This document shows, in pieces, positions 7,586 through 20,281 of a stretch of DNA of 41,691 bases (position 1 is its first letter; each line of letters opens with the position of its first letter). The stretch lies in the IMG/VR virus record IMGVR_UViG_3300037604_000033, positions 1 to 41,691 of that record; one strand, 5' to 3'. This stretch comes from a virus. Lineage: Duplodnaviria > Caudoviricetes. Under the pieces are notes generated by a model. It did not search any database. It had not been told where the DNA came from and worked only from the letters and a program-made list of their open reading frames with translations. Made by a program: the position numbers and the translations under genes.

Positions 7586-7638
7586 ACTCTAGGCGCTGTT
7601 TGTTCCGCCGCGAAGTGCGGCTAAGCCCTTGAAAGCGC

Positions 7639-7683
7639 TGGTGCCCGTAGTAAGAATTGAACTTACGGCCTCTCCCTTACCAA
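7639..7683 (-). mobile_element. attP: attP common core = 3' half of tRNA-Thr(GGT)
   Basis: Reverse complement reads TTGGTAA GGGAG AGGCC GTAAG TTCAATT CTTAC TACGGGC ACCA: anticodon loop with GGT, perfect T-arm, acceptor 3' strand and CCA. No 5' half is present. It lies in the intergenic gap next to the integrase operon. Confidence 0.9.
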
Positions 7684-7759
7684 CGGGGAATTAGTGGCGC
7701 GCAAGCCCTTGCTGCGCAAGGCGTTCCAGCTTCAACCGGCTTTTTGTGACTCGGACTTG

Positions 7760-8179
7760 TCAGGAGAGCAGAAAGGCGGCGGCATGGCGCCGGAACGCGA
7801 AGGCGCGGCGGGCGGCGGCCTTGAGAACGGCCGTCGCGAGATCGGCGTCGACCCTGAACCATTCTCCCCGCTCGTGCGCATGGGCGAGCTTCGCGTGCGC
7901 CCAAGCTTCCGCGTAGCGCGCGCCGATCTCGGGGACCTCGGCCGTGCGCTCAAGCCGGAGCGCCTGCGGGTTTCCAGGCTGCAGCGCGGCCATCCGCCGG
8001 GCGGGCTCGCGGGCGATCCCGAGCTTGCGCCAGTCGCCGCAGGAGATCACGTAAAGCCGCGTGAGGGCGTCGAGCGCCTGCTCGAGGTCGCCGGGGGGCG
8101 GGTCGATTCGGAAATCGACGAACGTCAGGCGGCCGCGCTGGTCGCGGCTCTCATCGAAGAGCGTTGGGCCGGTCGCCAC
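7760..8179 (-). CDS. T5orf172/Mug113-like (GIY-YIG superfamily) protein
   Basis: LYVI..RKLGIA.EPARRMAALQPGNP..L..AEAWAH..L....RGEWF motif chain. GTG start inferred at 8179 with GAGG upstream, overlapping the end of int. Confidence 0.75.
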   Translation of the reverse strand: MATGPTLFDESRDQRGRLTFVDFRIDPPPGDLEQALDALTRLYVISCGDWRKLGIAREPARRMAALQPGNPQALRLERTAEVPEIGARYAEAWAHAKLAHAHERGEWFRVDADLATAVLKAAARRAFAFRRHAAAFLLS

Positions 8180-9209
8180 GGTCTCGGCCTCGATCCCCGC
8201 CGAAATCCCAACCGTGCGCGAGCAGGCGCTCGGGCAGATCGGACGGCGCAAGCTTGGTGTAACGGCGCACCATCGCCGGCGACCGCCAGCCTCCGCGCGC
8301 TTCGAGGCGCAGCGTGTCGCCCGTGGCGGCATAGAACCACGTCGCCCAAGTGTGGCGCAGCACATGCGGCGTCACGTCCTGGCCGAGGCCAGCGCGCTCG
8401 CGGGCGGCGTTGAAAGCGAATGACATCTGCCCGCCGCCGTTCTCATAAAGCCGGTACGGGTTTCCCTTCGGCGTCCTGAAAGCCGCTCCGGTTTCCGGCA
8501 GGCCGTCGAGCAGGGCCTGCCAGGCGCGCTCGGGCGGGACGATCCATCTCGGGTGTCCCGTTTTGCTCGCGCCGTCTCTCTCGGCGGCGATGAGCGCTTC
8601 TCCCGAGCCCTGCGATATGTCGCGGACCTGAAGCGCCAGCAGCTCGCCCATGCGCAGGCCGGTCCCGAGCAGAACCACGACAACGCGGCGCAGGCGGGGC
8701 TTGCAGGCCGCGATGAGGGCTTCGGCTTCCTCGGGCGTGAGCCATCGCGTGCGCGGATTGTCCTGGCGCGGGCGGGGGCGCTTTCCAGCGTAGTAATTGA
8801 GGACGGCGCGCGCCGGCGTCACGGCCTGGCGGTGGCGGGTCGAGGGCTGCGCCTTGGGGTAGAGCGCTCGGCCTGCGCGCTCGATCTCGGCCTCGGTGAT
8901 GTCCGACACGCGCCGGCCGCGAAAATGGATGATGAGCGGCTTGAGGAAGCGCGGGCCGTGGCCGGCTTCCATGTAGGCGAGGGCGGCTTCCTCGAAGGTG
9001 GTTTCATCAATGCCGACCTCGCGCTTGTAACGGCGCTCAAGCTCGGCGATGGCGGCCGCCTCTATTCGCCGCGCCGCCGCCTCTGCGGCCTTTCGGTCGC
9101 GCGTTCGAGTGCTTTCTCGAACGCGGAGCGAGAGCCGCTGCGCCCCGAACGTCGCGTCGACCACCCCGTCGACGTGCCAGACGTCGCCCCGTCGCTTGAG
9201 CTTGAGCAT
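8151..9209 (-). CDS. int: Tyrosine recombinase / integrase
   Basis: Catalytic motifs TGLRMGE (R), HVLRH (HxxR), GGW and RRY. Start placed at MLKLKRRGDVW (9209), 352 aa. Confidence 0.93.
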   Translation of the reverse strand: MLKLKRRGDVWHVDGVVDATFGAQRLSLRVRESTRTRDRKAAEAAARRIEAAAIAELERRYKREVGIDETTFEEAALAYMEAGHGPRFLKPLIIHFRGRRVSDITEAEIERAGRALYPKAQPSTRHRQAVTPARAVLNYYAGKRPRPRQDNPRTRWLTPEEAEALIAACKPRLRRVVVVLLGTGLRMGELLALQVRDISQGSGEALIAAERDGASKTGHPRWIVPPERAWQALLDGLPETGAAFRTPKGNPYRLYENGGGQMSFAFNAARERAGLGQDVTPHVLRHTWATWFYAATGDTLRLEARGGWRSPAMVRRYTKLAPSDLPERLLAHGWDFGGDRGRDRGDRPNALR

Positions 9210-9451
9210 CCCTTCCCGCCTTCCGTCTTCTGCCGCGCCCGCGCCTCGCGCTCCTGGTGCTCGATTTCGAGGCGGCGGCGCAGCTCGCGAATGTCCGCCT
9301 GATAGAACAGCCGGCGCCGCCCATGATAGACGCCGACGTCGGAATGCCGGACGATCACGTCGCTGAAAGCCCGGATGCTCAAGCCGATGATGCGCGCCGC
9401 CTGCTCGCGCGTGGCGGGGACTTCGGCCCAATCTGGCAGGTCGTCAGGCAT
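9062..9451 (-). CDS. xis: Putative excisionase / recombination directionality factor
   Basis: Small basic winged-HTH-like protein (TREQAARIIGLS..GRRRLFYQADI) immediately upstream of int. Its Ser/Arg-rich tail overlaps the int 5' end by 148 nt. Confidence 0.65.
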   Translation of the reverse strand: MPDDLPDWAEVPATREQAARIIGLSIRAFSDVIVRHSDVGVYHGRRRLFYQADIRELRRRLEIEHQEREARARQKTEGGKGCSSSSDGATSGTSTGWSTRRSGRSGSRSAFEKALERATERPQRRRRGE

Positions 9452-9659
9452 GGCGAAGCCTCACGGCTTTGACGATCTCGGCGGCGCGCCGGTAGTGGCT
9501 CGACCGTGCGGCGGCGCGCCGGCCGACGCCCTGCGCGGCCTGCGCCTCGCCCTCGAGGCGCAGCTCGGCGTCGCGCAGCGTCGCGCGCACGATCTGATCA
9601 ACCTCTTGGCGGGTGTAGAGCCTTCCGGTGTCGCCATACTTGATTGCGGTTTCAGCCAT
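9444..9659 (-). CDS. Hypothetical protein
   Basis: 71 aa, short overlaps with both neighbours in the leftward operon. Confidence 0.65.
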   Translation of the reverse strand: MAETAIKYGDTGRLYTRQEVDQIVRATLRDAELRLEGEAQAAQGVGRRAAARSSHYRRAAEIVKAVRLRHA

Positions 9660-9774
9660 GGCGCGGGCGTCCTTCCAGTTTGTCGAGTCGGCGATGCAGG
9701 CGCGCGAGCGACGCGAAACAGGCGATGCCGGCGCCGAGCGCCAGCGCCGAGACGATCAGGGCGGCGGTGGTCAT
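9652..9774 (-). CDS. Small membrane protein (40 aa, absent from the ORF track)
   Basis: Translated by hand as MTTAALIVSALALGAGIACFASLARLHRRLDKLEGRPRHG. AAGGAG RBS, ATGA overlap upstream, and it exactly fills the gap. Confidence 0.7.
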   Translation of the reverse strand: MTTAALIVSALALGAGIACFASLARLHRRLDKLEGRPRHG

Positions 9775-9971
9775 GACTTCTCCTTCTCGAAAAGGTCGCC
9801 GACCGCCGGCGGGCGGCGATAGTCCTGCGCGATGGCTTCCATGATCGAGAGCCGGCGGTCGGCCTGGTCCTGCGTCATGCGGTCGGCCTGGACCTCTCGC
9901 GGATACACGCGCTTGCGCATCGCGATCTCACGCTCGAGTTCGGCGAGCTTGTCCTGCGCCGACCAGCTCAT
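9771..9971 (-). CDS. Conserved phage hypothetical protein
   Basis: MSWSAQDKLAELEREIAMRKRVYP.. 66 aa, GGAGGG RBS, ATGA coupling on both sides. Confidence 0.75.
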   Translation of the reverse strand: MSWSAQDKLAELEREIAMRKRVYPREVQADRMTQDQADRRLSIMEAIAQDYRRPPAVGDLFEKEKS

Positions 9972-10183
9972 GCGGTTTCCCTCCGCTGCGGTTTTTCGGG
10001 TGTGGCGGGCTGGAATTCGCCGCACCATTCCTGCTCGCCGACATGCGGGGCGTCGAAGCTTGGGAAGTAGTCGCAAGGCCATGTCACGACAGGCGGGAAC
10101 CTCCTGCACCATCCCGACCCGTCCGACTCGGGGTCGGCGCGACGCTTGAAAAAGCGGCATGCGCCGCAGCTCTCGCCGCTCAT
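9968..10183 (-). CDS. Small Cys-rich putative metal-binding protein
   Basis: CGAC..WCRRFPP..WCGEF four-Cys pattern; ATGA-coupled. Confidence 0.7.
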   Translation of the reverse strand: MSGESCGACRFFKRRADPESDGSGWCRRFPPVVTWPCDYFPSFDAPHVGEQEWCGEFQPATPEKPQRRETA

Positions 10184-10578
10184 CGCCGACCGCCTTTGAT
10201 GAGCGCGCGCATGCGGTCCATTTCTGCGGCGGTCGGGTAGGGCGGCACGAGCGGCCGCCCGGCGATCCCGGCGTCGAGCGTGGCGCGTTCGTCTGGCGTG
10301 AGGCCGCCAAGCGCCCGGTCGAGGCGTTCCGCGAAGCCATCGGGGATCGCGACCGGCGTCTCGATGATCTCGGTGCGGTTCTCGGGATCGCCGGCGAAGC
10401 CGCGCTCGGCGAGCTGCGCGGCGATATCCGCCGGCGGGCTGAGCTGCACGCGGCGCCCGTGCTCGATCTGCACCATGTGCGACGGCTTGAGGCCGAGGGC
10501 TCGCGCCATCTCAACGGTCGTCATCCCGCGCCCGAGGCGGATGCGGGCCAGGGCGTCTCGAAGCGGGGGGCGGCTCAT
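10180..10578 (-). CDS. XRE-family HTH protein
   Basis: LARIRLGRGMTTVEMARALGLKPSHMVQIEHGRR is a classic XRE HTH. ATGA overlap with the MipZ-like gene. Confidence 0.8.
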   Translation of the reverse strand: MSRPPLRDALARIRLGRGMTTVEMARALGLKPSHMVQIEHGRRVQLSPPADIAAQLAERGFAGDPENRTEIIETPVAIPDGFAERLDRALGGLTPDERATLDAGIAGRPLVPPYPTAAEMDRMRALIKGGRR

Positions 10579-11432
10579 GCGATGGCCTCCCGCTGGTCGC
10601 CGGCGAGGCGGGCGGAGAGGCCGGCGAACAGGCGATTGATCTCGCCGCGCGCGGCCTCGAAATCGAGCGCGCGGGCGTCGTCGGGCGCCTTCACGTCGAG
10701 CACGGTGAGCCCGTAGGGCCAGAGATCGGAATAGACCGGGCGTTGAGCGATGCCGGCCAGCAGCTCAAACCCGAGCTTGTCGGGCTTCGAGAGCATTTCG
10801 AGCACGCGCCAGACCCGAGACTCCGAGAGCGGCTGCCGGGCGTCGTATCGGTTGAGCACGACTGACCAGGTGATGCGCCCGACGTCGCGCGTCTGGCGAA
10901 TGATGTTCGCCTTGGCGACGGATTCGGCATAGGCGGCCGCGTTCACGTAAGCCCGCGTCGCCGGGTCAAACTTGGCGATGAGGTCAAGGTCGACCATCGA
11001 CGCGCCGAGCGGCGTGATGAGCAGATCGGCCGCGACATGCGCGACCTGTGAAAGCGTCGTATCGGCGCCGGGACAGTCGACCACGACCACATCGACGACG
11101 GGCAGCAGGTCGTCGACCGCCTCGCGAAACGCCCGGTAATCGGCGGCGAGGCGCAGCTCGCCCTGCGTCTCGCGCGAGGCCTGGACGAACCGCCGGCGCG
11201 GCAGGGTGAGCGCGTGGCCCTTCGCTTTCATGAAGGCCGCCCGGTTCTCGAAAAAGCCGTCCGTGCTGCGCTGCTGCACGTCGAGGTCGATGAGACCAAC
11301 CGTCATGTCGCTCGCCAGCAGCTTCGCGACCAGGTGGCAGACGGTGGTCGACTTGCTCGACCCGCCCTTGATGTTGCCGACGACCACGACCTGCCCGGCC
11401 CAAGCCTCGCGCATGTCTTCAATGCTGAGCAT
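10575..11432 (-). CDS. mipZ: MipZ-like ParA/MinD-family ATPase
   Basis: VVVGNIKGGSSKST, IDLDVQQRS..FFENR, VDCPG, AHVAADLLITP..SMVDLDLI, W.VVLNR, GF....GI.QR.VY.DLWPYGLT.LD, AARGEI. These match MipZ-specific motifs recalled from alphaproteobacterial MipZ. Confidence 0.85.
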   Translation of the reverse strand: MLSIEDMREAWAGQVVVVGNIKGGSSKSTTVCHLVAKLLASDMTVGLIDLDVQQRSTDGFFENRAAFMKAKGHALTLPRRRFVQASRETQGELRLAADYRAFREAVDDLLPVVDVVVVDCPGADTTLSQVAHVAADLLITPLGASMVDLDLIAKFDPATRAYVNAAAYAESVAKANIIRQTRDVGRITWSVVLNRYDARQPLSESRVWRVLEMLSKPDKLGFELLAGIAQRPVYSDLWPYGLTVLDVKAPDDARALDFEAARGEINRLFAGLSARLAGDQREAIA

Positions 11433-11435
11433 CGC

Positions 11436-14297
11436 TCATGCCTCCCTTACCTGCCCGCGCTTCGCGCCGGCGTTGACGTTGGCCCAAGCGGTGCGCGCCG
11501 CTTCGTCGCGGTTCATGCCCTGGCCGACGAGGCGGTTGGCCTCGCGCATGGCCAGCCGCTTCAAGGCCTTCTGATCTCGGAAATATTCGGCGTTCTTCGC
11601 CATCTCTGCGGTCGGGCGAAACGCGCCATTGCTCACGACAAGCCCGCCCTCGGCGAGGTCGGTCGGCCGGCGACGCATCAGCCCGTTGTGCAGCGTGGAT
11701 CGCTGGCGCTCCGGGTTGAGGTCGTCGGCGTTGACCGGCGCCAGCCCGTCGCCGACCGTGCCGCCGGCTTCAAGCTCAAGCGACTCCGGGTCGAAAACCG
11801 AGCTGCCGTCATCGCCATGGTCGCGGAAGCCTGCGCCCGCCCCGGCCGGGGCTCCCGAGATGTAATCGGCCGGGTACTCGTCAAAAGGGCGCTGGCGGGC
11901 TCCTGCAGCCCGCTCGGGCTCGGCCTGGTCGTCGCCGATGTCGTGCAGTCCGAGCCCGCCGCGCCGCTTCTCGCGCAGCTCCTGACGCCGCCGCGCCAGC
12001 TCTGCCGCGTCCTGGTCGGCCGTCGAGGCTGGCGAGGGCGGTCCTTCGGCAGGGGCGCCCTGCTCGGGCTGGACCGAAGCGCCGGCGAGCGTGTCGAGGT
12101 CGAGCGGCGCTTCCGCAGCGGGCTCGGGCTCGGGCTCATGCCGGCGCTCCATCTCGGCGGCCATGCGGCGCGCCTCGGCCATCCATCCGTCATCAGCCTT
12201 GGGCTCGGCCTGGTCGGCCGCCTCCGGCGCATCAGCCTCGGTCTCGGCCTGGTCGGCCGCCTCCGGCGCGTCGGCCTCGGGCTCGGCCTGGTCGGCCGCC
12301 TCCGGCGCATCAGCCTCGGTCTCGGCCTGGTCGGCCGCCTCCGGCGCGTCGGCCTCGGGCTCGGCCTGGTCGGCCGCCTCCGGCGCGTCGGCCTCGGGCT
12401 CGGCCTGATCGGCCGCCTTCGGCGTGTCGGCCTCGGGCTCGGCGGGCTTGCCGAACCGGATTCGGGAGAACAGGCCGGTGCGCTGTTCTCCGGTCTCGGC
12501 GGGTTCGGCCGGCGCCGAGACCGGCCGGGCGCCGGCTGCCTCGGGTTCGCCGGCGTCTGCGGCGGGCGCGCCTGCTGCGGCCGCCGGCTGCGTCTCGGGC
12601 GCGGTTGCCGGGCGCGGCGTGACTTTGAGCCCGACGCCGCCAGCGGCAATCCGCACGACTTCCGAGCCGACATCGCCAGCAAGGCGGCCGAGCGCGCCGG
12701 CGATGCGTCCGGCCCGCGTGGGGCCGCTCGGCGGGGCCGGCAGCGCGTTGCGGGCGAGCTGCGCGTCGAGCTTCGCCGAGAGGTCGGCCAGGCTCGCCGG
12801 ATCGGCGCCCGCCTGGACCGCCGCGCGATAGTCGCCGAGCGCGCCGAGCGTGCGCTCGCGCTCGATCTCGGCCTGCAGGCGCGCCGCGTGGCGGGCCTGG
12901 TCGGCGAGAATCCAGCTGCGTTCGGCGTGCGCCTCGAGCGCCGCAACCGCGACGTCGCCGCGAACGAGGCTGAGCCACATCCTGCGCAGCCATCCGACCA
13001 GGCCGAGGCTCGGCCGGCGCGGGCGGGCGTGTACGCGCCACAGAGAGGCCAGCAGATCGAACAGAAGCGAGATCAGCAGGCCGCCGCAGATTTTGACGCC
13101 TTCGGGCGTCGCCCCGATGAAGCGGCCGACCGGGTTGTTGACGAGCATCAGCAGGATGGCCGCCCAAACCTGCGCGCCCCATTCGCTGCCGGTCACGGTG
13201 AGCCCTTCGAGCTTGCGGCGCAGCTCATCCGACCGCTTTTCCTTCCGGGCGGCGTCCTCGCGGAGGGCGGGCAGGCTGGCGCTCGCCTGGGCGACGGCTT
13301 CCTCGGCGGCGCGGCGGGCGCTCGCGCGGCTTTCGAGTTCGGCCGCGCGGATCGCGGCCAGGGCGACGCGGGCCTGCGCCGCTTCGCCGCGCTCGGCCGC
13401 GCGTGCCTTCTCGGCCTCGGCGAGCGCTTCGACGATGGGCTTGAGCTCTTCGCGGGCGGCGTTGGCCGCGTCGCGCGCGCCGCGCCATAGCGGGCCGTCG
13501 CCAGCCTTGAGCACGGGGTCGCCATCCTGGCCGACGCAGCCGGGCAGGCTCGCGCTGCCGTGCAGCTCGCAATCCGCGACGGCCTGCAGCCGGTCGACAT
13601 CCTCGCGCAGTCGCGCCACACGCGCGCGCTCCGGCGCGAGCGGGTCATCGGTCGGCGCGTCCTGCCGGGCGGCGGCGGCCGCCGCCTCGGCGGCGCGGCG
13701 GGCCTCGGTCTCGGCCGCCAGCAGATCGGCGATGCGGGCATTGCCGGCGGCGACACTGTCAAGCGCCGACTGGATGGAGGCCTTGGCGATCCTCTGCGCC
13801 TCCGTGGCCTCGGCGATATCCTTTTCCAGGGCCGTCCGCTGCTGGGCGATCTCGGTTTTGCGCTGCGCCTGGTCCTGCGCCGTCTGCTCGCCCTTGGCGA
13901 TGTAGGCATGGAAGGTCGCCGCCGAGGTGATGACCGACGCCAGCGTGATGAGCCGCGCCTGCATCAGCAGGCCTCGGCTGTAAAGGATCATGGCCAGGCA
14001 GATCATGGCGCCAAACCCGAGCGTGCCGACCATCTGCGTTGCGGTCGGCGTGCCGGTGAGGACGCCATACATGGTCGAGGCCGAGGTCGAGGCGCTGACG
14101 CCGCCGGCGAACAGCGCCGCCATGTCGAGCACGGTGAAGGGCGGGGCCTTCGCGCCCGATTGCGCCTCGCGCCGGTGGCGCAGCCAGTGGGCGAGGATGA
14201 AGGCCAGCAGCCCGAGCGCCAGCCCGTAGGGCAGCAGCTCGGGCGAGAGCGCGCGATCGAGATACGCGCCCGCCTGGAGTTGGATTTCGTCGAGCAT
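11436..14297 (-). CDS. Large membrane-anchored coiled-coil protein with acidic repeat region (DUF4407-like)
   Basis: Start placed at MLDEIQ (AGGAGAG RBS), 953 aa. About 3-4 N-terminal hydrophobic helices, a coiled coil with a CExxG..C..GxGP hairpin motif, 1-2 further hydrophobic helices and a long Glu/Pro/Ala-rich tail. Confidence 0.8.
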   Translation of the reverse strand: MLDEIQLQAGAYLDRALSPELLPYGLALGLLAFILAHWLRHRREAQSGAKAPPFTVLDMAALFAGGVSASTSASTMYGVLTGTPTATQMVGTLGFGAMICLAMILYSRGLLMQARLITLASVITSAATFHAYIAKGEQTAQDQAQRKTEIAQQRTALEKDIAEATEAQRIAKASIQSALDSVAAGNARIADLLAAETEARRAAEAAAAAARQDAPTDDPLAPERARVARLREDVDRLQAVADCELHGSASLPGCVGQDGDPVLKAGDGPLWRGARDAANAAREELKPIVEALAEAEKARAAERGEAAQARVALAAIRAAELESRASARRAAEEAVAQASASLPALREDAARKEKRSDELRRKLEGLTVTGSEWGAQVWAAILLMLVNNPVGRFIGATPEGVKICGGLLISLLFDLLASLWRVHARPRRPSLGLVGWLRRMWLSLVRGDVAVAALEAHAERSWILADQARHAARLQAEIERERTLGALGDYRAAVQAGADPASLADLSAKLDAQLARNALPAPPSGPTRAGRIAGALGRLAGDVGSEVVRIAAGGVGLKVTPRPATAPETQPAAAAGAPAADAGEPEAAGARPVSAPAEPAETGEQRTGLFSRIRFGKPAEPEADTPKAADQAEPEADAPEAADQAEPEADAPEAADQAETEADAPEAADQAEPEADAPEAADQAETEADAPEAADQAEPKADDGWMAEARRMAAEMERRHEPEPEPAAEAPLDLDTLAGASVQPEQGAPAEGPPSPASTADQDAAELARRRQELREKRRGGLGLHDIGDDQAEPERAAGARQRPFDEYPADYISGAPAGAGAGFRDHGDDGSSVFDPESLELEAGGTVGDGLAPVNADDLNPERQRSTLHNGLMRRRPTDLAEGGLVVSNGAFRPTAEMAKNAEYFRDQKALKRLAMREANRLVGQGMNRDEAARTAWANVNAGAKRGQVREA
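12192..12443. repeat. 39-bp tandem repeat, 6 full copies plus partial flanks (13-aa EPEADAPEAADQA)
   Basis: Unit CTCGGCCTGGTCGGCCGCCTCCGGCGCRTCRGCCTCGGK starts at 12204, 12243, 12282, 12321, 12360 and 12399; in frame within the 953-aa gene. Confidence 0.95.
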
Positions 14298-14310: not shown

Positions 14311-14586
14311 CTAGATGATGCCGGCGACGGCGCCGGCGCAAAGGTCGATGATGAGTTCCGCCGACGCATCGTGCGGGACGTTCGCCGGCCCGAAGGCCTC
14401 GCGCGCCGCCGCCCGCGCTTCGTCGAGCGAGCAGCGCGCCTGCAGTCTGCAATCCTGCGCCATGCTGGCGTCGCCGGCGGCGTCATGGGCGCGCGCCCTG
14501 GCGGCGCGAGAGATCGCCCCGAGGGCGTGCGCTTCGGCGCGGTGCCGGGGCTTGGCGTCGTCGCTGAGCTGGATGATGACGGCCAT
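14311..14586 (-). CDS. Hypothetical protein
   Basis: MAVIIQLSDD.. 91 aa; GGAGGG RBS; TGATG overlap with the upstream gene. Confidence 0.65.
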   Translation of the reverse strand: MAVIIQLSDDAKPRHRAEAHALGAISRAARARAHDAAGDASMAQDCRLQARCSLDEARAAAREAFGPANVPHDASAELIIDLCAGAVAGII

Positions 14587-15008
14587 CACACGCCCTCCCG
14601 CGTGTGCTCGATCGCCTTGTCGGCCGGCTGCGTCCGCCAGTCGGGCCAGTCGCGCAGTTCGTTGCGGTCCTGCTTTTCCTTCACGGCGCGGGCGATGCGC
14701 TCGGGCTCCAAGCCGGCGCGCCAAGCAAGATCGAGCGAGAGCAGGATCACGTCTGCGGCTTCGGCGGCGAGCGCGTCGCGGGTGTCCTTCGCCTCTTTCG
14801 CGATGCTGCCGGGGATCGGGCCGAGCGTCGTCGCCAAGGCTTCGCTCTCGGCTTCCTGGGCGGCCTCGGCGGCCTCGCTCGCCTTGGCGAATTCGGCCAG
14901 CTCGCGCCGGATATGGTCGGACACGCCGGCGACGCGGCGTCCGGGACCGAAGGTCGCGCGGGAGAACGCGCGTTGCCGGTAGAGATGGGCGACAAGGTCG
15001 AAGCTCAT
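14586..15008 (-). CDS. DUF550-family dATP/dGTP pyrophosphohydrolase-domain (MazG-like) protein
   Basis: HL.RQRAFS.ATFGPG.R..GV.DHIR.EL.E, E.ADV.LL.LD..WR.G and N..R.WPDWR....DKAIEH motifs. Confidence 0.8.
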   Translation of the reverse strand: MSFDLVAHLYRQRAFSRATFGPGRRVAGVSDHIRRELAEFAKASEAAEAAQEAESEALATTLGPIPGSIAKEAKDTRDALAAEAADVILLSLDLAWRAGLEPERIARAVKEKQDRNELRDWPDWRTQPADKAIEHTREGV

Positions 15009-16073: not shown

Positions 16074-16678
16074 CGGGCGGCCTCCCCGATCCCGGCCGGC
16101 GGCTGGGCCGTATGTCCGGCCGGATCGTGGGCGCGCGAGTCGGCGGCCAGCAGAAGGCCGAGGACAAAGGCGAGCAGCAGCGTGTAAGCCCTGATATCGG
16201 GCGTCTGTTCAATGGAGGTAATCAGACGATGAGCAGCGACGATGAAGCCTTGCGTGAGACGATGAAAAGACTTGAGCGCGAGGCTGCGGCGGCGGCCGAC
16301 TCCAAGATCGCCGCCGACCGACGCGCGTTCGAAGCCAGCCCGGTGGGCCGGTTCATTGCACTTGCGGCGCTTGTGGCGCTGGGCCTGATCGCCTGGTCTG
16401 CCATTTCCAGCGGTGGTGAAAGCGACGCAGAGCGCGACGCGCGCAGAGCGCAAGAGGCCAGCTGCAAGGCTGGTACGCTGGCCGACTGCCCGGCGCACGT
16501 AATGGTTCGCGCCCGGCGAATTGCTGACGCCATCGACGATGGTGCGGTCACGCGCTCGCAGCTTCGCCGGATGGCCGAATGCGAGACGCGCTGGTCGACT
16601 GACGCCGCAGCGCGGGTCATCTGCGCCGACCAGGTCCTGAGCGACTGAGCTGCGGCGGCGGGTTCGGAAAACAGGCAT
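16070..16678 (-). CDS. First gene of the pL operon, hypothetical with C-terminal hydrophobic segment (overlapped antisense by 16229-16648)
   Basis: GGAGG 7 nt before the ATG, right after pL. Stop overlaps the next start (ATGA). The TM-like YTLLLAFVLGLLLAA lies outside the overlap, but the middle looks like a shadow frame. Confidence 0.45.
   Translation of the reverse strand: MPVFRTRRRSSVAQDLVGADDPRCGVSRPARLAFGHPAKLRARDRTIVDGVSNSPGANHYVRRAVGQRTSLAAGLLRSARVALCVAFTTAGNGRPGDQAQRHKRRKCNEPAHRAGFERASVGGDLGVGRRRSLALKSFHRLTQGFIVAAHRLITSIEQTPDIRAYTLLLAFVLGLLLAADSRAHDPAGHTAQPPAGIGEAAR
16229..16648 (+). CDS. Single-pass membrane protein with 4-Cys extracytoplasmic domain (moron / superinfection-exclusion candidate)
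   Basis: GGAGGT RBS before ATG 16229; 139 aa; TM FIALAALVALGLIAW; opposite strand to the flanking operon. Confidence 0.7.
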   Translation: MSSDDEALRETMKRLEREAAAAADSKIAADRRAFEASPVGRFIALAALVALGLIAWSAISSGGESDAERDARRAQEASCKAGTLADCPAHVMVRARRIADAIDDGAVTRSQLRRMAECETRWSTDAAARVICADQVLSD

Positions 16679-16710: not shown

Positions 16711-16740
16711 AATATGCAGTAGGGAAATCCCTACTGTCAA
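16711..16740 (-). promoter_or_regulatory. Leftward early promoter pL
   Basis: Minus strand TTGACA-N18-CATATT, with an operator filling the spacer and an RBS plus ATG just downstream. Confidence 0.75.
16717..16736. promoter_or_regulatory. Operator OL1
   Basis: Perfect palindrome CAGTAGGG-AAAT-CCCTACTG. Confidence 0.88.
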
Positions 16741-16745
16741 TCAGA

Positions 16746-16765
16746 CAGTAGGTAAAACCCTACTG
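16746..16765. promoter_or_regulatory. Operator OL2 (overlaps the cI stop codon)
   Basis: CAGTAGGT-AAAA-CCCTACTG, one arm mismatch relative to OL1. Confidence 0.85.
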
Positions 16766-17455
16766 GTTTTTGTTCTGCCCGCCCTCCTTTCCCGATTCGT
16801 GCAGCGTTTCCGAGGGCTTGGCGACTGCTGCGCCTTCGTTCGAAAGCCGCTCGACCAGGTCGGCGGGCAAGACAAGGCGAACGCGACTTGCGGCCACGAC
16901 CTCGCGATCTCGGATCGGTGGCAGATGCGGCGCAATCGGGCCTAGAAACGCGCGCCCGGCCGGGTCAAATCTCAGGGTTTTGACCATCATTTCCCCGTCG
17001 TCGACCGAGCAAACGCAGACGTGTCCGTCGTGCTCAAGAGACGGCGCCTCTCGCGACGGTTCGTAAAACAAGACCGATCCGCGCTGCGCGTAGGGCGCGA
17101 GTGCAGACGTCATGACGTCCAGGGCGGCGAATTCCTCACCTGAGATTTTTCCGAACGCGTAAACCCATTCCGGGGCGAACTCGCTCGGGTCTATGAGCTG
17201 CACATGGTCCTCGGCCATAACCTGGCCGACGACCCGGACCGGCTCGCCACGCTCGAAAAACACAGCGGGACTTACCCGCAATTCGTGGGCCAACCGAACG
17301 AGATTATCGACGCGCAGGCTTTGTTGTCGGCCGCTGATGAAGTGCAGAACCAGCGTGTGAGTCAGGCCTGCTGCTCTCGCGAGCCCGGTAGGCGTGAGAC
17401 CGCGCTCCGCCATAAGCGCTTCTAGCTTCGGGATGATCTGGTCGCGAGTGTTCAT
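16760..17455 (-). CDS. cI: CI-like repressor (XRE HTH + degenerate S24 domain)
   Basis: Start placed at MNTRDQII, 231 aa. HTH LMAERGLTPTGLARAAGL; S24-like C-terminus (GEMMVKTL); divergent from cro and flanked by operators. Confidence 0.88.
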   Translation of the reverse strand: MNTRDQIIPKLEALMAERGLTPTGLARAAGLTHTLVLHFISGRQQSLRVDNLVRLAHELRVSPAVFFERGEPVRVVGQVMAEDHVQLIDPSEFAPEWVYAFGKISGEEFAALDVMTSALAPYAQRGSVLFYEPSREAPSLEHDGHVCVCSVDDGEMMVKTLRFDPAGRAFLGPIAPHLPPIRDREVVAASRVRLVLPADLVERLSNEGAAVAKPSETLHESGKEGGQNKNQ

Positions 17456-17505: not shown

Positions 17506-17535
17506 TTGCAAGAGTAGGGAAAACCCTACTATGCT
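17506..17535 (+). promoter_or_regulatory. Rightward early promoter pR with operator OR1 (17513-17530)
   Basis: TTGCAA-N18-TATGCT with AGTAGGG-AAAA-CCCTACT in the spacer. The cro ATG is 7 nt downstream, so the mRNA may be leaderless. Confidence 0.8.
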
Positions 17536-17788: not shown

Positions 17789-18114
17789 TGACGGCCTGCG
17801 CGAAACCCTCTCCCGATCCGAAGCCGCATCCTCTCTCGGGCGCCGCCGGGCGTCGGCGCTCCGACGCCGGGCTCGCCGAGGGCGTGCTCGAGCAATTGGG
17901 CGCCGCCGAGGTCTCGGCCCTCCGCGGCCATTTCGCCGACCAGCTCGCCGAGCGGCTGCGCTTCGACGCCGCGGTGGCGTTCACGCGCGGGCGCATGGGC
18001 GCGGATGAGTTCCGCATGTGGCTGCGGGCGTCGGCCCTTCTTCAGGTCGCGGACGGCGCGCCAGACGCCGCCGAATGGCCTGACCCGGCGGCGCTGCCGC
18101 TCGCTGCACAATGA
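17785..18114 (+). CDS. Hypothetical protein
   Basis: 109 aa, coupled to cro and to the methylase. Confidence 0.6.
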   Translation: MMTACAKPSPDPKPHPLSGAAGRRRSDAGLAEGVLEQLGAAEVSALRGHFADQLAERLRFDAAVAFTRGRMGADEFRMWLRASALLQVADGAPDAAEWPDPAALPLAAQ

Positions 18115-19070
18115 GCGAGGGCGATCTCATGGGCGCTTTTACGTGTCTGGACCTCTTCAGCGGCGCGGCCGGCGCCTGGACGCTCGGCCTGCATCGCGCG
18201 GGCTTCCGCACCGTGGCGGCCGCCGAGGCTGATCCGTGGCGCCGCGAGATGTTCGCCAAGCGCTGGGGCGTTCATGTCTATGCGGACGTAAGGGAGATTA
18301 CCGCCGATGCATGGGATGGCGCGCGACCTTTTCTCGTTTGCGGGTCTCCCCCCTGCCAGCACATCAGCGCCGCAAATACGCGGGGCCGTGGAGTGCTCGG
18401 AGACCGACTGTTCTTTGAGGCCGCCCGAATTGCTGACGAGCTCCGCCCTACGTGGATTGCGTTTGAGAACAGTGATCGCCTCCCAGCTCGGGGATATGAC
18501 TCAGTCGCAGCATCGCTGGAAGGCGCGGGCTACGACCTTTGGCCGGTCATATTGGGTGCTGGCCATGCCGGCGCGGCCCATCGGCGCAACCGAATTTTCG
18601 TCATCGGGCGGCTTTCTGCCTCTGCCGATACCGGACAAGGACGCACTCTCGAGCAGTCATCGGGGCTCGGATGCTTGGGTGCCGACGCCGACCGCAATGG
18701 CGGGCAAATGCTCTCCGGCGACAACATGGGCGGGCGGAAGCGCAGCGCGGCCGAAGGCGCTGGCGATGATCGAATTGGCGTTGGAGGAATTTCTGCCGAC
18801 GCCGACGGCGCAGGATTACGGATCGAACAAGGGCGGCGCTGCTGGCCGGACGGGGCGCGCGCGCCCATCTCTCTCGACCCTGGCGCGGGCCTGGGGCCTG
18901 TCGGGACCGCAAGCCTTGCTAGCTATCTACGCGCATATGCAGGGATTCCCCGTCGCCTGGCCGAGCGTTGGCGAGCGGCCTTCGGCGACGCGATCCCGCC
19001 GCAGATCACGGAGGTAATCGGTCACGCGATTCTGGCCTTAGAGGCGGACGAGATGGCGAGGGCCGCATGA
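18111..19070 (+). CDS. DNA (cytosine-5) methyltransferase, alpha-type polypeptide
   Basis: Motifs I (LDLFSGAAG), IV (GSPPCQ), VI (FENS), VIII (HRRNRIF) and X (AFGDAI); no motif IX visible in this frame. Confidence 0.88.
   Translation: MSEGDLMGAFTCLDLFSGAAGAWTLGLHRAGFRTVAAAEADPWRREMFAKRWGVHVYADVREITADAWDGARPFLVCGSPPCQHISAANTRGRGVLGDRLFFEAARIADELRPTWIAFENSDRLPARGYDSVAASLEGAGYDLWPVILGAGHAGAAHRRNRIFVIGRLSASADTGQGRTLEQSSGLGCLGADADRNGGQMLSGDNMGGRKRSAAEGAGDDRIGVGGISADADGAGLRIEQGRRCWPDGARAPISLDPGAGLGPVGTASLASYLRAYAGIPRRLAERWRAAFGDAIPPQITEVIGHAILALEADEMARAA
18316..19017 (+). CDS. Nested out-of-frame polypeptide, putative beta subunit of the C5 methyltransferase
   Basis: About 233 aa in the +1 frame, entirely within the MTase gene. 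Carries two (W/F)xPTPTA motifs and the motif IX-like HMQGFPVAW. Confidence 0.7.
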   Translation: MARDLFSFAGLPPASTSAPQIRGAVECSETDCSLRPPELLTSSALRGLRLRTVIASQLGDMTQSQHRWKARATTFGRSYWVLAMPARPIGATEFSSSGGFLPLPIPDKDALSSSHRGSDAWVPTPTAMAGKCSPATTWAGGSAARPKALAMIELALEEFLPTPTAQDYGSNKGGAAGRTGRARPSLSTLARAWGLSGPQALLAIYAHMQGFPVAWPSVGERPSATRSRRRSRR

Positions 19071-19378: not shown

Positions 19379-20281
19379 ATGGCGAGGGACACGACAGGCG
19401 AGACGGTTTTGCCGCTCGATGAGAAGGCCGGGCAGGGGACGGGCCGGGCGCTCGACACGAAAGAGCTGCGCGGCCTGGTCGAACAGTGGGATCGGCTCGA
19501 AGAGCGCGGGCAGCAGCTCGCCGAGGATCGGCGCGACTATTGGACCTGGGCGAAGGCGCGGGGCTTCGACGTCGATGGGCTCCGGCTCTACTTCCAGCGC
19601 CGCAGGAACCGGGATCGCTGGCACGCGCGGGCGGCCCTTGCCGATCTCTATGAGGATCGTCTCGACCATGACGCCGGGCCGATGTTCGACGAGCCCGAGG
19701 CGCAGACCGCCGAGGCGGAGGCTGCCGCCTTCCGTGAGGCGCTTGTGCGTGGCGGCATCTACACCATCGGGCTTGCCAACATGGTCGACGCCCGCGCCAT
19801 CGCCAGAAAGTTCGGTTTCAGCGACGCGGCGGTCGAGCTTGTCATCGGCGAGGGCCGCCCCGAGGTCGTCGGCCTGCCTGGCCAGTCCTTCGGCCAGGCC
19901 GATGAGCCCAAAGCGCCGCCCAAGGCGACGATCACGCGCGTAGAGGTGACGACGCCGAAGGGGCGCACGGCCAAGCTCAAGGCCTCCGACCCGCTGGTGC
20001 GGCTGCATGCGGCGTCGGTCGAGGGCCATGGCGACTATTGCGCCTGCGACGACTGCCTCGCCCTGCGGCGCGGCATTCTCGCCGAGAAGGTGGCGGACCA
20101 CGAGGCCAAGGCGGCCGAGTCGTCGGCGCGCGTCGACGCGCTGGTCGAGGCTGCCGAGCCGGCCAAGCAGGCGGCGGTCGTCGACGCTCTCGCCGGCCGG
20201 AAGCGCGCGCCCCGCAAAAAGCCCGCCGCCAAAAAGCCGGCCGCCAAAAAGCCCGCGACCAAGAAATCCGCCGAGCAGTGA
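19379..20281 (+). CDS. GapR/DUF2312-like DNA-binding domain fused to an extended C-terminus with an H1-like tail
   Basis: ELRGLVEQWDRLEE..QQLAEDRRDYW..AKARGFDVDGLR....RR resembles GapR; CACDDC motif; KKPAA repeats at the C-terminus; GGAGGG RBS. Confidence 0.7.
   Translation: MARDTTGETVLPLDEKAGQGTGRALDTKELRGLVEQWDRLEERGQQLAEDRRDYWTWAKARGFDVDGLRLYFQRRRNRDRWHARAALADLYEDRLDHDAGPMFDEPEAQTAEAEAAAFREALVRGGIYTIGLANMVDARAIARKFGFSDAAVELVIGEGRPEVVGLPGQSFGQADEPKAPPKATITRVEVTTPKGRTAKLKASDPLVRLHAASVEGHGDYCACDDCLALRRGILAEKVADHEAKAAESSARVDALVEAAEPAKQAAVVDALAGRKRAPRKKPAAKKPAAKKPATKKSAEQ

Follow-up and report, generated by a model that had tools for sequence, protein, structure and literature searches.

A divergent MipZ-family ATPase beside a rare membrane protein in the early operon of a temperate phage

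The locus and its leftward operon

We analysed the 41,691-bp IMG/VR record IMGVR_UViG_3300037604_000033 (Duplodnaviria; Caudoviricetes), a complete virus with direct terminal repeats whose whole length is the window considered here, and in which three intact leftward open reading frames (ORFs) encode a 953-aa membrane protein, a 285-aa ATPase of the MipZ family and a 132-aa protein with an XRE-type helix-turn-helix (HTH) domain (Table 1). We find that this phage carries an apparently undescribed, rewired MipZ next to a rare, scaffold-like membrane protein. The gene content, with HK97-type head genes, a lambdoid tail, an integrase and a CI-type repressor, marks the phage as temperate, and it occurs in pond metagenomes, with no RNA run among the listed holders of its sequence. 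The arrangement described in an earlier note on this DNA is borne out by the ORF coordinates and by bridging contigs, with a 3-nt gap between the first two genes, an ATGA overlap between the second and third, and a share of the genome that the note put at about 10% and that measures 9.9% of the record. A Shine-Dalgarno-like run precedes each ORF. An assembly artefact or a foreign insert was rejected, as contigs of other sequencing runs span both junctions (X3, 10178-12220; X4, 10178-11555; and X9, from another study, 11336-11627) and the codon composition is phage-like, the GC content at third codon positions of the cassette (0.87-0.88) being the same as in the capsid and terminase genes.

Upon examining the transcriptional setting, we observe three 18-bp operator-like sites around the repressor gene, against 0.02 expected by chance, and a promoter scan found no further leftward promoter between 16740 and the integrase. 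The promoter at 16740 is the likely source of the transcript over the three genes. Because operators flank the repressor and the leftward promoter, and no other leftward promoter was found, the three are most likely early lytic genes of a lambdoid PL-type operon, which is where the note had placed them. The elements together outline a lambdoid immunity region (16711-16764 and 17513-17530), with three near-palindromic operators, one of them over the leftward promoter. A CtrA-box search gave no match.

The third gene of the cassette encodes an XRE HTH protein, in agreement with the note, its HTH_31 match reaching 33 bits against a cut-off of 27; the C-terminal half of the protein lies outside any assigned domain. 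Among viral contigs no relative of this protein was found beyond this phage, a PDB search gave no match, and only its position ties it to the other two genes. A terminator-like hairpin with a T-run (10154-10167, minus strand) lies 13 nt past its stop codon; terminator-like sites are not enriched overall in the phage (9 found against 6.2 expected).

Table 1. Features of the leftward early operon and the immunity region (positions in the window)
Feature	Position	Strand	Basis
953-aa inner-membrane protein (predicted)	11436..14297	-	hydropathy, helices, charge, repeat, relatives P0065-P0067
39-bp (13-aa) acidic tandem repeat, 6.4 copies	12196..12443	-	repeat analysis
285-aa MipZ-family ATPase (predicted), divergent clade	10575..11432	-	Pfam, PDB, Foldseek, VIA-align, alignment
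132-aa protein, N-terminal XRE-type HTH (~7-58)	10180..10578	-	HTH_31 match
Sigma-70-like leftward promoter	16711..16740	-	10/12 consensus matches; overlaps one operator, adjoins second
Two 18-bp near-palindromic operator-like sites	16718-16735, 16747-16764	.	palindrome search
Third operator-like site	17513..17530	.	between repressor gene and rightward cro-like ORF
CI-type repressor	16760..17455	-	phrog_4

The ATPase and its changed surfaces

By family and by predicted fold the ATPase is a MipZ and not a ParA, as the note had proposed. It matches Pfam MipZ (PF09140) at 204.5 bits against a cut-off of 20.7 (E 2e-60), a PDB sequence search ranks MipZ (E 7e-35) far above ParA/Soj (3.5e-5 or worse), and NCBIfam ParA is reached at 56.5 bits against a cut-off of 180, with NCBIfam MinD likewise far under its cut-off. 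Its structure model (pLDDT 89.6) shows the S6/S7 hairpin as strands 153-156 and 161-165 before helix 7, and is placed closest to MipZ both by Foldseek (2xj4, E 1.6e-21; ParF, 6e-11) and by VIA-align, in which MipZ is the top match (Z 30.4, rmsd 2.8, 256 aligned) above ParA, ParF, Soj and MinD; ordinary MipZ sequences abound in the alignment behind the model, so that the likeness of fold is partly built in. A plasmid-type ParA identity was rejected on the Pfam, PDB, NCBIfam and Foldseek rankings.

Next, we investigated the relatives of the ATPase. A word-based protein search gave 37 matches among 6,869 candidates, comprising the same phage, three relatives (73%, 70% and 46% identical) and ordinary MipZ at no more than 42%. 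Searches of this type are lossy, P0066 having gone unreported although its sequence was in the query alignment. The phage ATPase and the three relatives (P0005, which is 73% identical, P0006, and P0007, the most distant) form a single long-branch clade (support 100/100), placed as sister to Rhodobacterales MipZ with an SH-like approximate likelihood-ratio (SH-aLRT) support of 96 in one tree and 89/84 in another; a basal placement is compatible too (approximately unbiased (AU) test, p 0.55), which leaves the donor lineage between both. Among the viral contigs of IMG/VR, MipZ-type patterns returned only a 99.95% identical copy of the phage and weak ParA matches, none of 50,697 INPHARED records gave a match, and the best matches in BFVD are distant (E 1.7e-5 or weaker, one being a ParA) and include no MipZ. 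Metagenome and genome scans, covering 10/64 and 9/64 parts respectively, contained only ordinary MipZ among the matches listed. PLSDB holds 10 MipZ records, 6 of them on replicons larger than 1.4 Mb, and therefore MipZ off the main chromosome has precedent. In the portions of the literature on MipZ, MipZ paralogues, phage ParA-like ATPases and alphaproteobacterial phage division inhibitors that were available, with subscription journals thinly covered, we found neither a phage-encoded MipZ nor a phage division inhibitor for Alphaproteobacteria.

When compared residue by residue (numbering of Caulobacter MipZ, mapped by hand from the PDB alignment, with 191 other MipZ sequences as controls), the ATP-binding motifs are kept. 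K13, G14, K18, D40, D42 and R221 are retained in all four clade members, and G17 is Ser in the phage ATPase, where KGGSSKS still fits the deviant Walker A consensus KGGXXK[S/T] (PMC9178275). With this Walker A motif (K13, G14, K18) and the catalytic D42 in place, the protein is predicted to be an ATPase. By contrast, the surfaces at which MipZ meets its partners differ. W164, the key FtsZ determinant in a study that also tested K155, R167 and K168 (PMC9897490), is lost in the three closest clade members (Ala in the phage ATPase; W in 179 of 191 controls), as is R167 (Asn in the phage ATPase; R or K in 188 of 191); at W164, R167, K168 and K155 the phage ATPase thus reads A, N, I and N, with K155 and K168 variable among the controls. 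On these losses and the published mutant data, the phage MipZ probably does not cap FtsZ. Devosia genomes (L120, L110, G004) likewise have MipZ without W164, with Gln in its place in two neighbouring paralogues, and G004 has a third copy elsewhere.

The predicted dimer interface is altered in the whole clade. All four members are changed at G17 and N134 (each present in 191/191 controls), D135 (D or E in 191/191) and N195 (188/191), which fall in the P loop, the segment between beta5 and helix 6 and the start of helix 8, the three segments that move at the MipZ dimer interface (PMC3355305, sections 6 and 7). Furthermore, most of the residues with a mapped role in DNA binding (R194, R196, K197, R198, R219, R221, L237, R242 and L248; PMC7229837) are replaced in the phage ATPase, with R198, R221 and L248 kept and R194, R196 and K197 lost; at positions 194, 196, 197 and 198 the clade has 0-1 basic residues of 4, and 190 of 191 controls have at least 2. 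R219 is changed too, yet it is poorly conserved among the controls. Overall, the phage ATPase keeps 55 of 80 strongly conserved columns, of which every control keeps at least 65.

A decaying pseudogene is disfavoured. The three close members all depart from the controls at 21 conserved columns, and at 14 of these they have an identical new residue; of the best-supported polymorphisms, all 3 in the ATPase gene are synonymous (as are 4 of 7 in the HTH gene, and 9 of 13 in the large gene, where the other 4 lie in the disordered tail and three within-repeat differences were excluded). The pattern points to rewiring rather than decay. The phage ATPase resembles the MipZ of Caulobacter crescentus (2XJ4/2XIT/2XJ9), of Rhodobacter sphaeroides and of Magnetospirillum, which carries MipZ1 and MipZ2 (PMC7022226), in sequence family, in fold including the S6/S7 hairpin, in the deviant Walker A and in D40/D42 and R221. 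It differs from them at W164, R167, N134, D135, G17, N195, R196 and R213, in an extra N-terminal helix (residues 4-11), in being encoded by a phage and in adjoining a membrane protein gene. The note had recognised no ParB, and a ParB search of the phage was indeed negative, with the control matched in 11/14 genomes.

The membrane protein and the host setting

The large protein has the character given in the earlier note, a membrane coiled-coil protein with an acidic tail. Hydropathy peaks at ~21-39, 51-69, 89-107, 116-134, 377-395 and 401-419 give 5-6 predicted transmembrane (TM) helices, and a single-sequence model has long helices at 115-212 and 268-366. The predicted layout comprises four N-terminal TM helices, a coiled-coil hairpin (~135-366) with a Cys243-Cys254 tip loop, 1-2 more TM helices, a cytoplasmic helical part (~431-552), an acidic disordered tail with 13-aa repeats and basic C-terminal helices, with a net charge of -49 over residues 560-870. 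A variant lacks 26 aa, consistent with two fewer repeat copies. The conserved Cys pair, and basic residues that follow both the first TM helix and the last, suggest that the coiled-coil stalk is periplasmic and the tail cytoplasmic. For the C-terminal helices, a likeness to ChaB gained no support in searches.

An exhaustive search of 1.84 billion representatives returned 9 matches, namely one variant of the protein itself, three relatives of its N-terminal half (P0065-P0067; E 3e-26 to 1e-8) and five that match the acidic repeat only. The three relatives have in common the N-terminal group of four hydrophobic segments, a coiled coil whose tip loop reads CE-x-G...C...G-x-G, the returning TM helix and a juxtamembrane motif. 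Fold searches with the single-sequence model (pLDDT 60) gave nothing, and the protein was not found in PLSDB. The large protein belongs to a tiny family and has a predicted layout that is landmark-like. In this respect the note's landmark idea holds in part, the layout being of the landmark kind, with neither a LysM or TPR domain nor detectable homology to HubP. It resembles HubP/FimV, which work with ParA1, ParC and FlhG in Vibrio and Pseudomonas, in being an inner-membrane protein that combines coiled coils with a large acidic region carrying repeats, presumably on the cytoplasmic side, beside a ParA/MinD-family ATPase; unlike HubP/FimV, it has 5-6 predicted TM helices instead of one. A second likeness is to DUF4407 (PF14362), whose members likewise have several TM helices, one of them returning after a long coiled-coil stalk with a Gly-rich loop at its tip, and a tail on the cytoplasmic side; the phage protein differs from it in an extra N-terminal TM helix and a very long acidic tail. 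Pfam gives no DUF4407 match for the large protein itself. DUF4407 is the best Pfam match of two of the three relatives (E 0.005 and 0.016, below the cut-off; best member 16.5 bits against 31.3), and hhalign gives a probability of 26.8% over the tip loop, with an Atlas score of 0.79; the profile used also matches weakly in 10/151 genomes and 2/14 controls. The link, below every threshold, is suggestive, and the family is uncharacterised in the part of its record that was available.

Regarding the host, the MipZ, the GapR-like gene, integrase relatives (present in 8/401 genomes from the order of the Rhodobacter genome G001) and a depletion of GANTC (67 seen against 196 expected, with one control word nearly equally depleted) lead us to infer an alphaproteobacterium. 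The stretch ~7631-7686 is the reverse complement of the 3' half of a tRNA-Thr(GGT), 88% identical to its closest genome match, and is the likely attP. Adjoining this site, a T5orf172/MUG113 (GIY-YIG-like) ORF (7760-8365, minus strand) overlaps the end of the integrase. In the rightward direction lie a C5 cytosine DNA methyltransferase of the early operon (18111-19070, plus strand) and an ORF (19379-20281, plus strand) whose N-terminal part is a GapR-like DNA-binding domain (36.4 bits to Pfam PF10073, above cut-off), a second host cell-cycle or nucleoid factor on the phage. A 15-bp tandem repeat (20215-20256, 2.8 copies) upstream of a primase-like gene may represent replication iterons. Upstream of the large gene is a dATP/dGTP pyrophosphohydrolase (MazG-like) gene (14586-15008, minus strand), also present in the related viral locus L170, and a lone rightward ORF (16112-16648, plus strand) stands within the leftward region beside the repressor, with a hydrophobic segment, several cysteines and no family match.

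Competing readings and their meaning

The reading that we favour, tentatively and with clearly less than even confidence, is that a rewired MipZ docks on a phage membrane landmark. It starts from the MipZ ancestry and fold of the ATPase and from the residue changes common to its small clade. Judging from Caulobacter mutant data, such a protein would inhibit FtsZ little or not at all, would bind the nucleoid differently and would be insulated from the host MipZ by its remodelled dimer interface, a step that taken alone we consider probable. The promoter and operator layout suggests expression upon infection or induction and repression in the lysogen. Orphan ParA/MinD ATPases usually adjoin a partner gene, and by analogy with HubP and ParA1 the membrane protein would form a landmark that recruits the ATPase, which would work as an ATP-switched adaptor on the acidic cytoplasmic tail and give phage DNA or proteins a membrane address. 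The partners of HubP bind its acidic repeat region (PMC8789113). The weakest step is the cargo, which may be phage DNA, with the XRE HTH protein as its tether and a membrane or polar address serving replication or integration. The complete version, a phage-built positioning machine in which an insulated, FtsZ-blind MipZ, a multi-pass, acidic-tailed landmark and an HTH adaptor tether phage DNA early in infection, is doubtful.

Several properties of the two proteins weigh against the docking of MipZ on a landmark. P0007, the most distant clade member, retains W164 and R167, and W164 is also missing from 12/191 controls. The total of K and R over residues 196-216 is 4, which equals the control mode, so that DNA binding may be shifted and not lost, and an acidic tail is no likelier a partner for an ATPase that has lost basic residues. 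The tails in the family of the large protein range from ~150 to 600 residues and show no significant likeness (in the best case, 4-10 of 300 shuffles scored as high). Additionally, neither Pfam nor NCBIfam finds LysM or TPR in the large protein.

The genomic evidence counts against docking as well, and favours a reading in which the three genes are unconnected accessories within a mosaic early operon, where the membrane protein acts alone on the envelope (e.g., in the exclusion of other phages), the HTH protein is an ordinary regulator and the ATPase has its partner elsewhere. The close spacing that the note had treated as special is operon-wide, 10 of the 12 junctions among 13 leftward ORFs overlapping and the two exceptions being those that flank the large gene, and we rejected it as evidence of a module. 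Natural variants beside the cassette show gene-by-gene mosaicism of the early operon, with precise loss of the 71-aa Cys-rich ORF (9966-10177) that follows the HTH gene (joint 9965-10178), and with the next 71-aa ORF (9449-9681) missing or replaced (joint 9448-9657). The co-occurrence check that the note had proposed found the genes in this phage only, with no second genome among the viral contigs and INPHARED. Each of two profiles was found in 0/401 genomes from the order of G001, 16 viral loci whose integrases are 39-47% identical have none of the three genes nearby, and the surroundings of 160 other MipZ loci (110 with at least 3.5 kb upstream) lack any homologue of the large protein. Because the contigs of the ATPase relatives (17,283 or 3,184; 4,213; and 2,710 bp) are distinct in length from those of the membrane-protein relatives (11,277; 12,567; and 10,724 bp), no contig at hand carries both, and the exhaustive search gave no clear membrane-protein partner for P0005. 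However, a 2.9-kb gene is costly for a 41.7-kb genome, and it lies 3 nt from an ATPase of positioning type without the known partner surfaces; as for exclusion, an early gene under repressor control would presumably not protect the lysogen, and neither the membrane protein nor its relatives match anything in PADLOC. We regard independent neighbours as somewhat unlikely, and they rank, together with the ParB decoy considered next, close behind docking.

A monomer-biased, FtsZ-blind MipZ could also act as a decoy that ties up host ParB (or ParA) at the origin, displaces host MipZ and uncouples division from segregation. The changed dimer-interface residues, the lack of a phage ParB and the presence of the GapR-like protein, another host cell-cycle factor, are in keeping with this, as is the binding of monomeric MipZ variants to polar ParB in Caulobacter (PMC3355305) and Rhodobacter (PMC6315104). 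Overexpressed monomer-locked variants, however, left Rhodobacter division unaffected (PMC6315104), R196, whose loss weakens ParB foci (PMC7229837), is changed along with the poorly conserved R219, and K13 and G14, the sites at which mutation locks the monomer, are intact. Such a decoy is unlikely in our assessment.

The earlier note had also suggested a block of septation, in which a MipZ freed from DNA and ParB would inhibit FtsZ and Z-rings cell-wide, in the manner of Kil. The PL-type position of the operon, the filamentation of Caulobacter MipZ DNA-binding mutants (PMC7229837) and the retention of W164 and R167 by P0007 speak for it. When set against the mapped FtsZ site (PMC9897490), the phage ATPase has W164A, R167N and K168I, differs at the L161 and L172 positions and is non-basic at K155; because W164 and R167 are lost, in the phage ATPase and its two closest relatives, a direct septation block is not supported, and we consider it quite improbable. 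Very improbable is a partition system of a plasmid-like prophage, with the ATPase as ParA and the HTH protein as ParB, for which an ATPase gene followed by a small DNA-binding gene recalls the type Ib layout and a PHROG ParA-like match exists, and against which stand the integrase and the tRNA-Thr(GGT)-like att site, the position downstream of a repressor-controlled promoter, the NCBIfam ParA score far under its cut-off, the finding of no ParB_N match and no match to a parS consensus (an HTH-type centromere-binding protein remains compatible), and that of no non-coding repeat array in the 20 largest repeat families.

Proteins by which phages position DNA or affect division include PhuZ/TubZ, phage ParA and lambda Kil, the last of which is encoded in the lambda PL operon; PhuZ and Kil have unrelated folds, phage ParA belongs to another ATPase subfamily, and none is derived from MipZ. 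If the complete positioning-machine version is correct, this would be the first MipZ-derived viral system and the first MipZ in which a membrane landmark replaces ParB and the nucleoid. MipZ is an essential chromosomal regulator of alphaproteobacterial division, and the phage copy, which preserves the ATP core and differs at three partner surfaces, would be a natural separation-of-function variant that lets the rewiring of ParA/MinD-family ATPases to new cargo be tested directly. Even if it is merely a ParB decoy, it would be a new route of phage interference with division in Alphaproteobacteria. Overall, the phage MipZ bears on how small temperate phages may exploit or upset the spatial order of polarised host cells.

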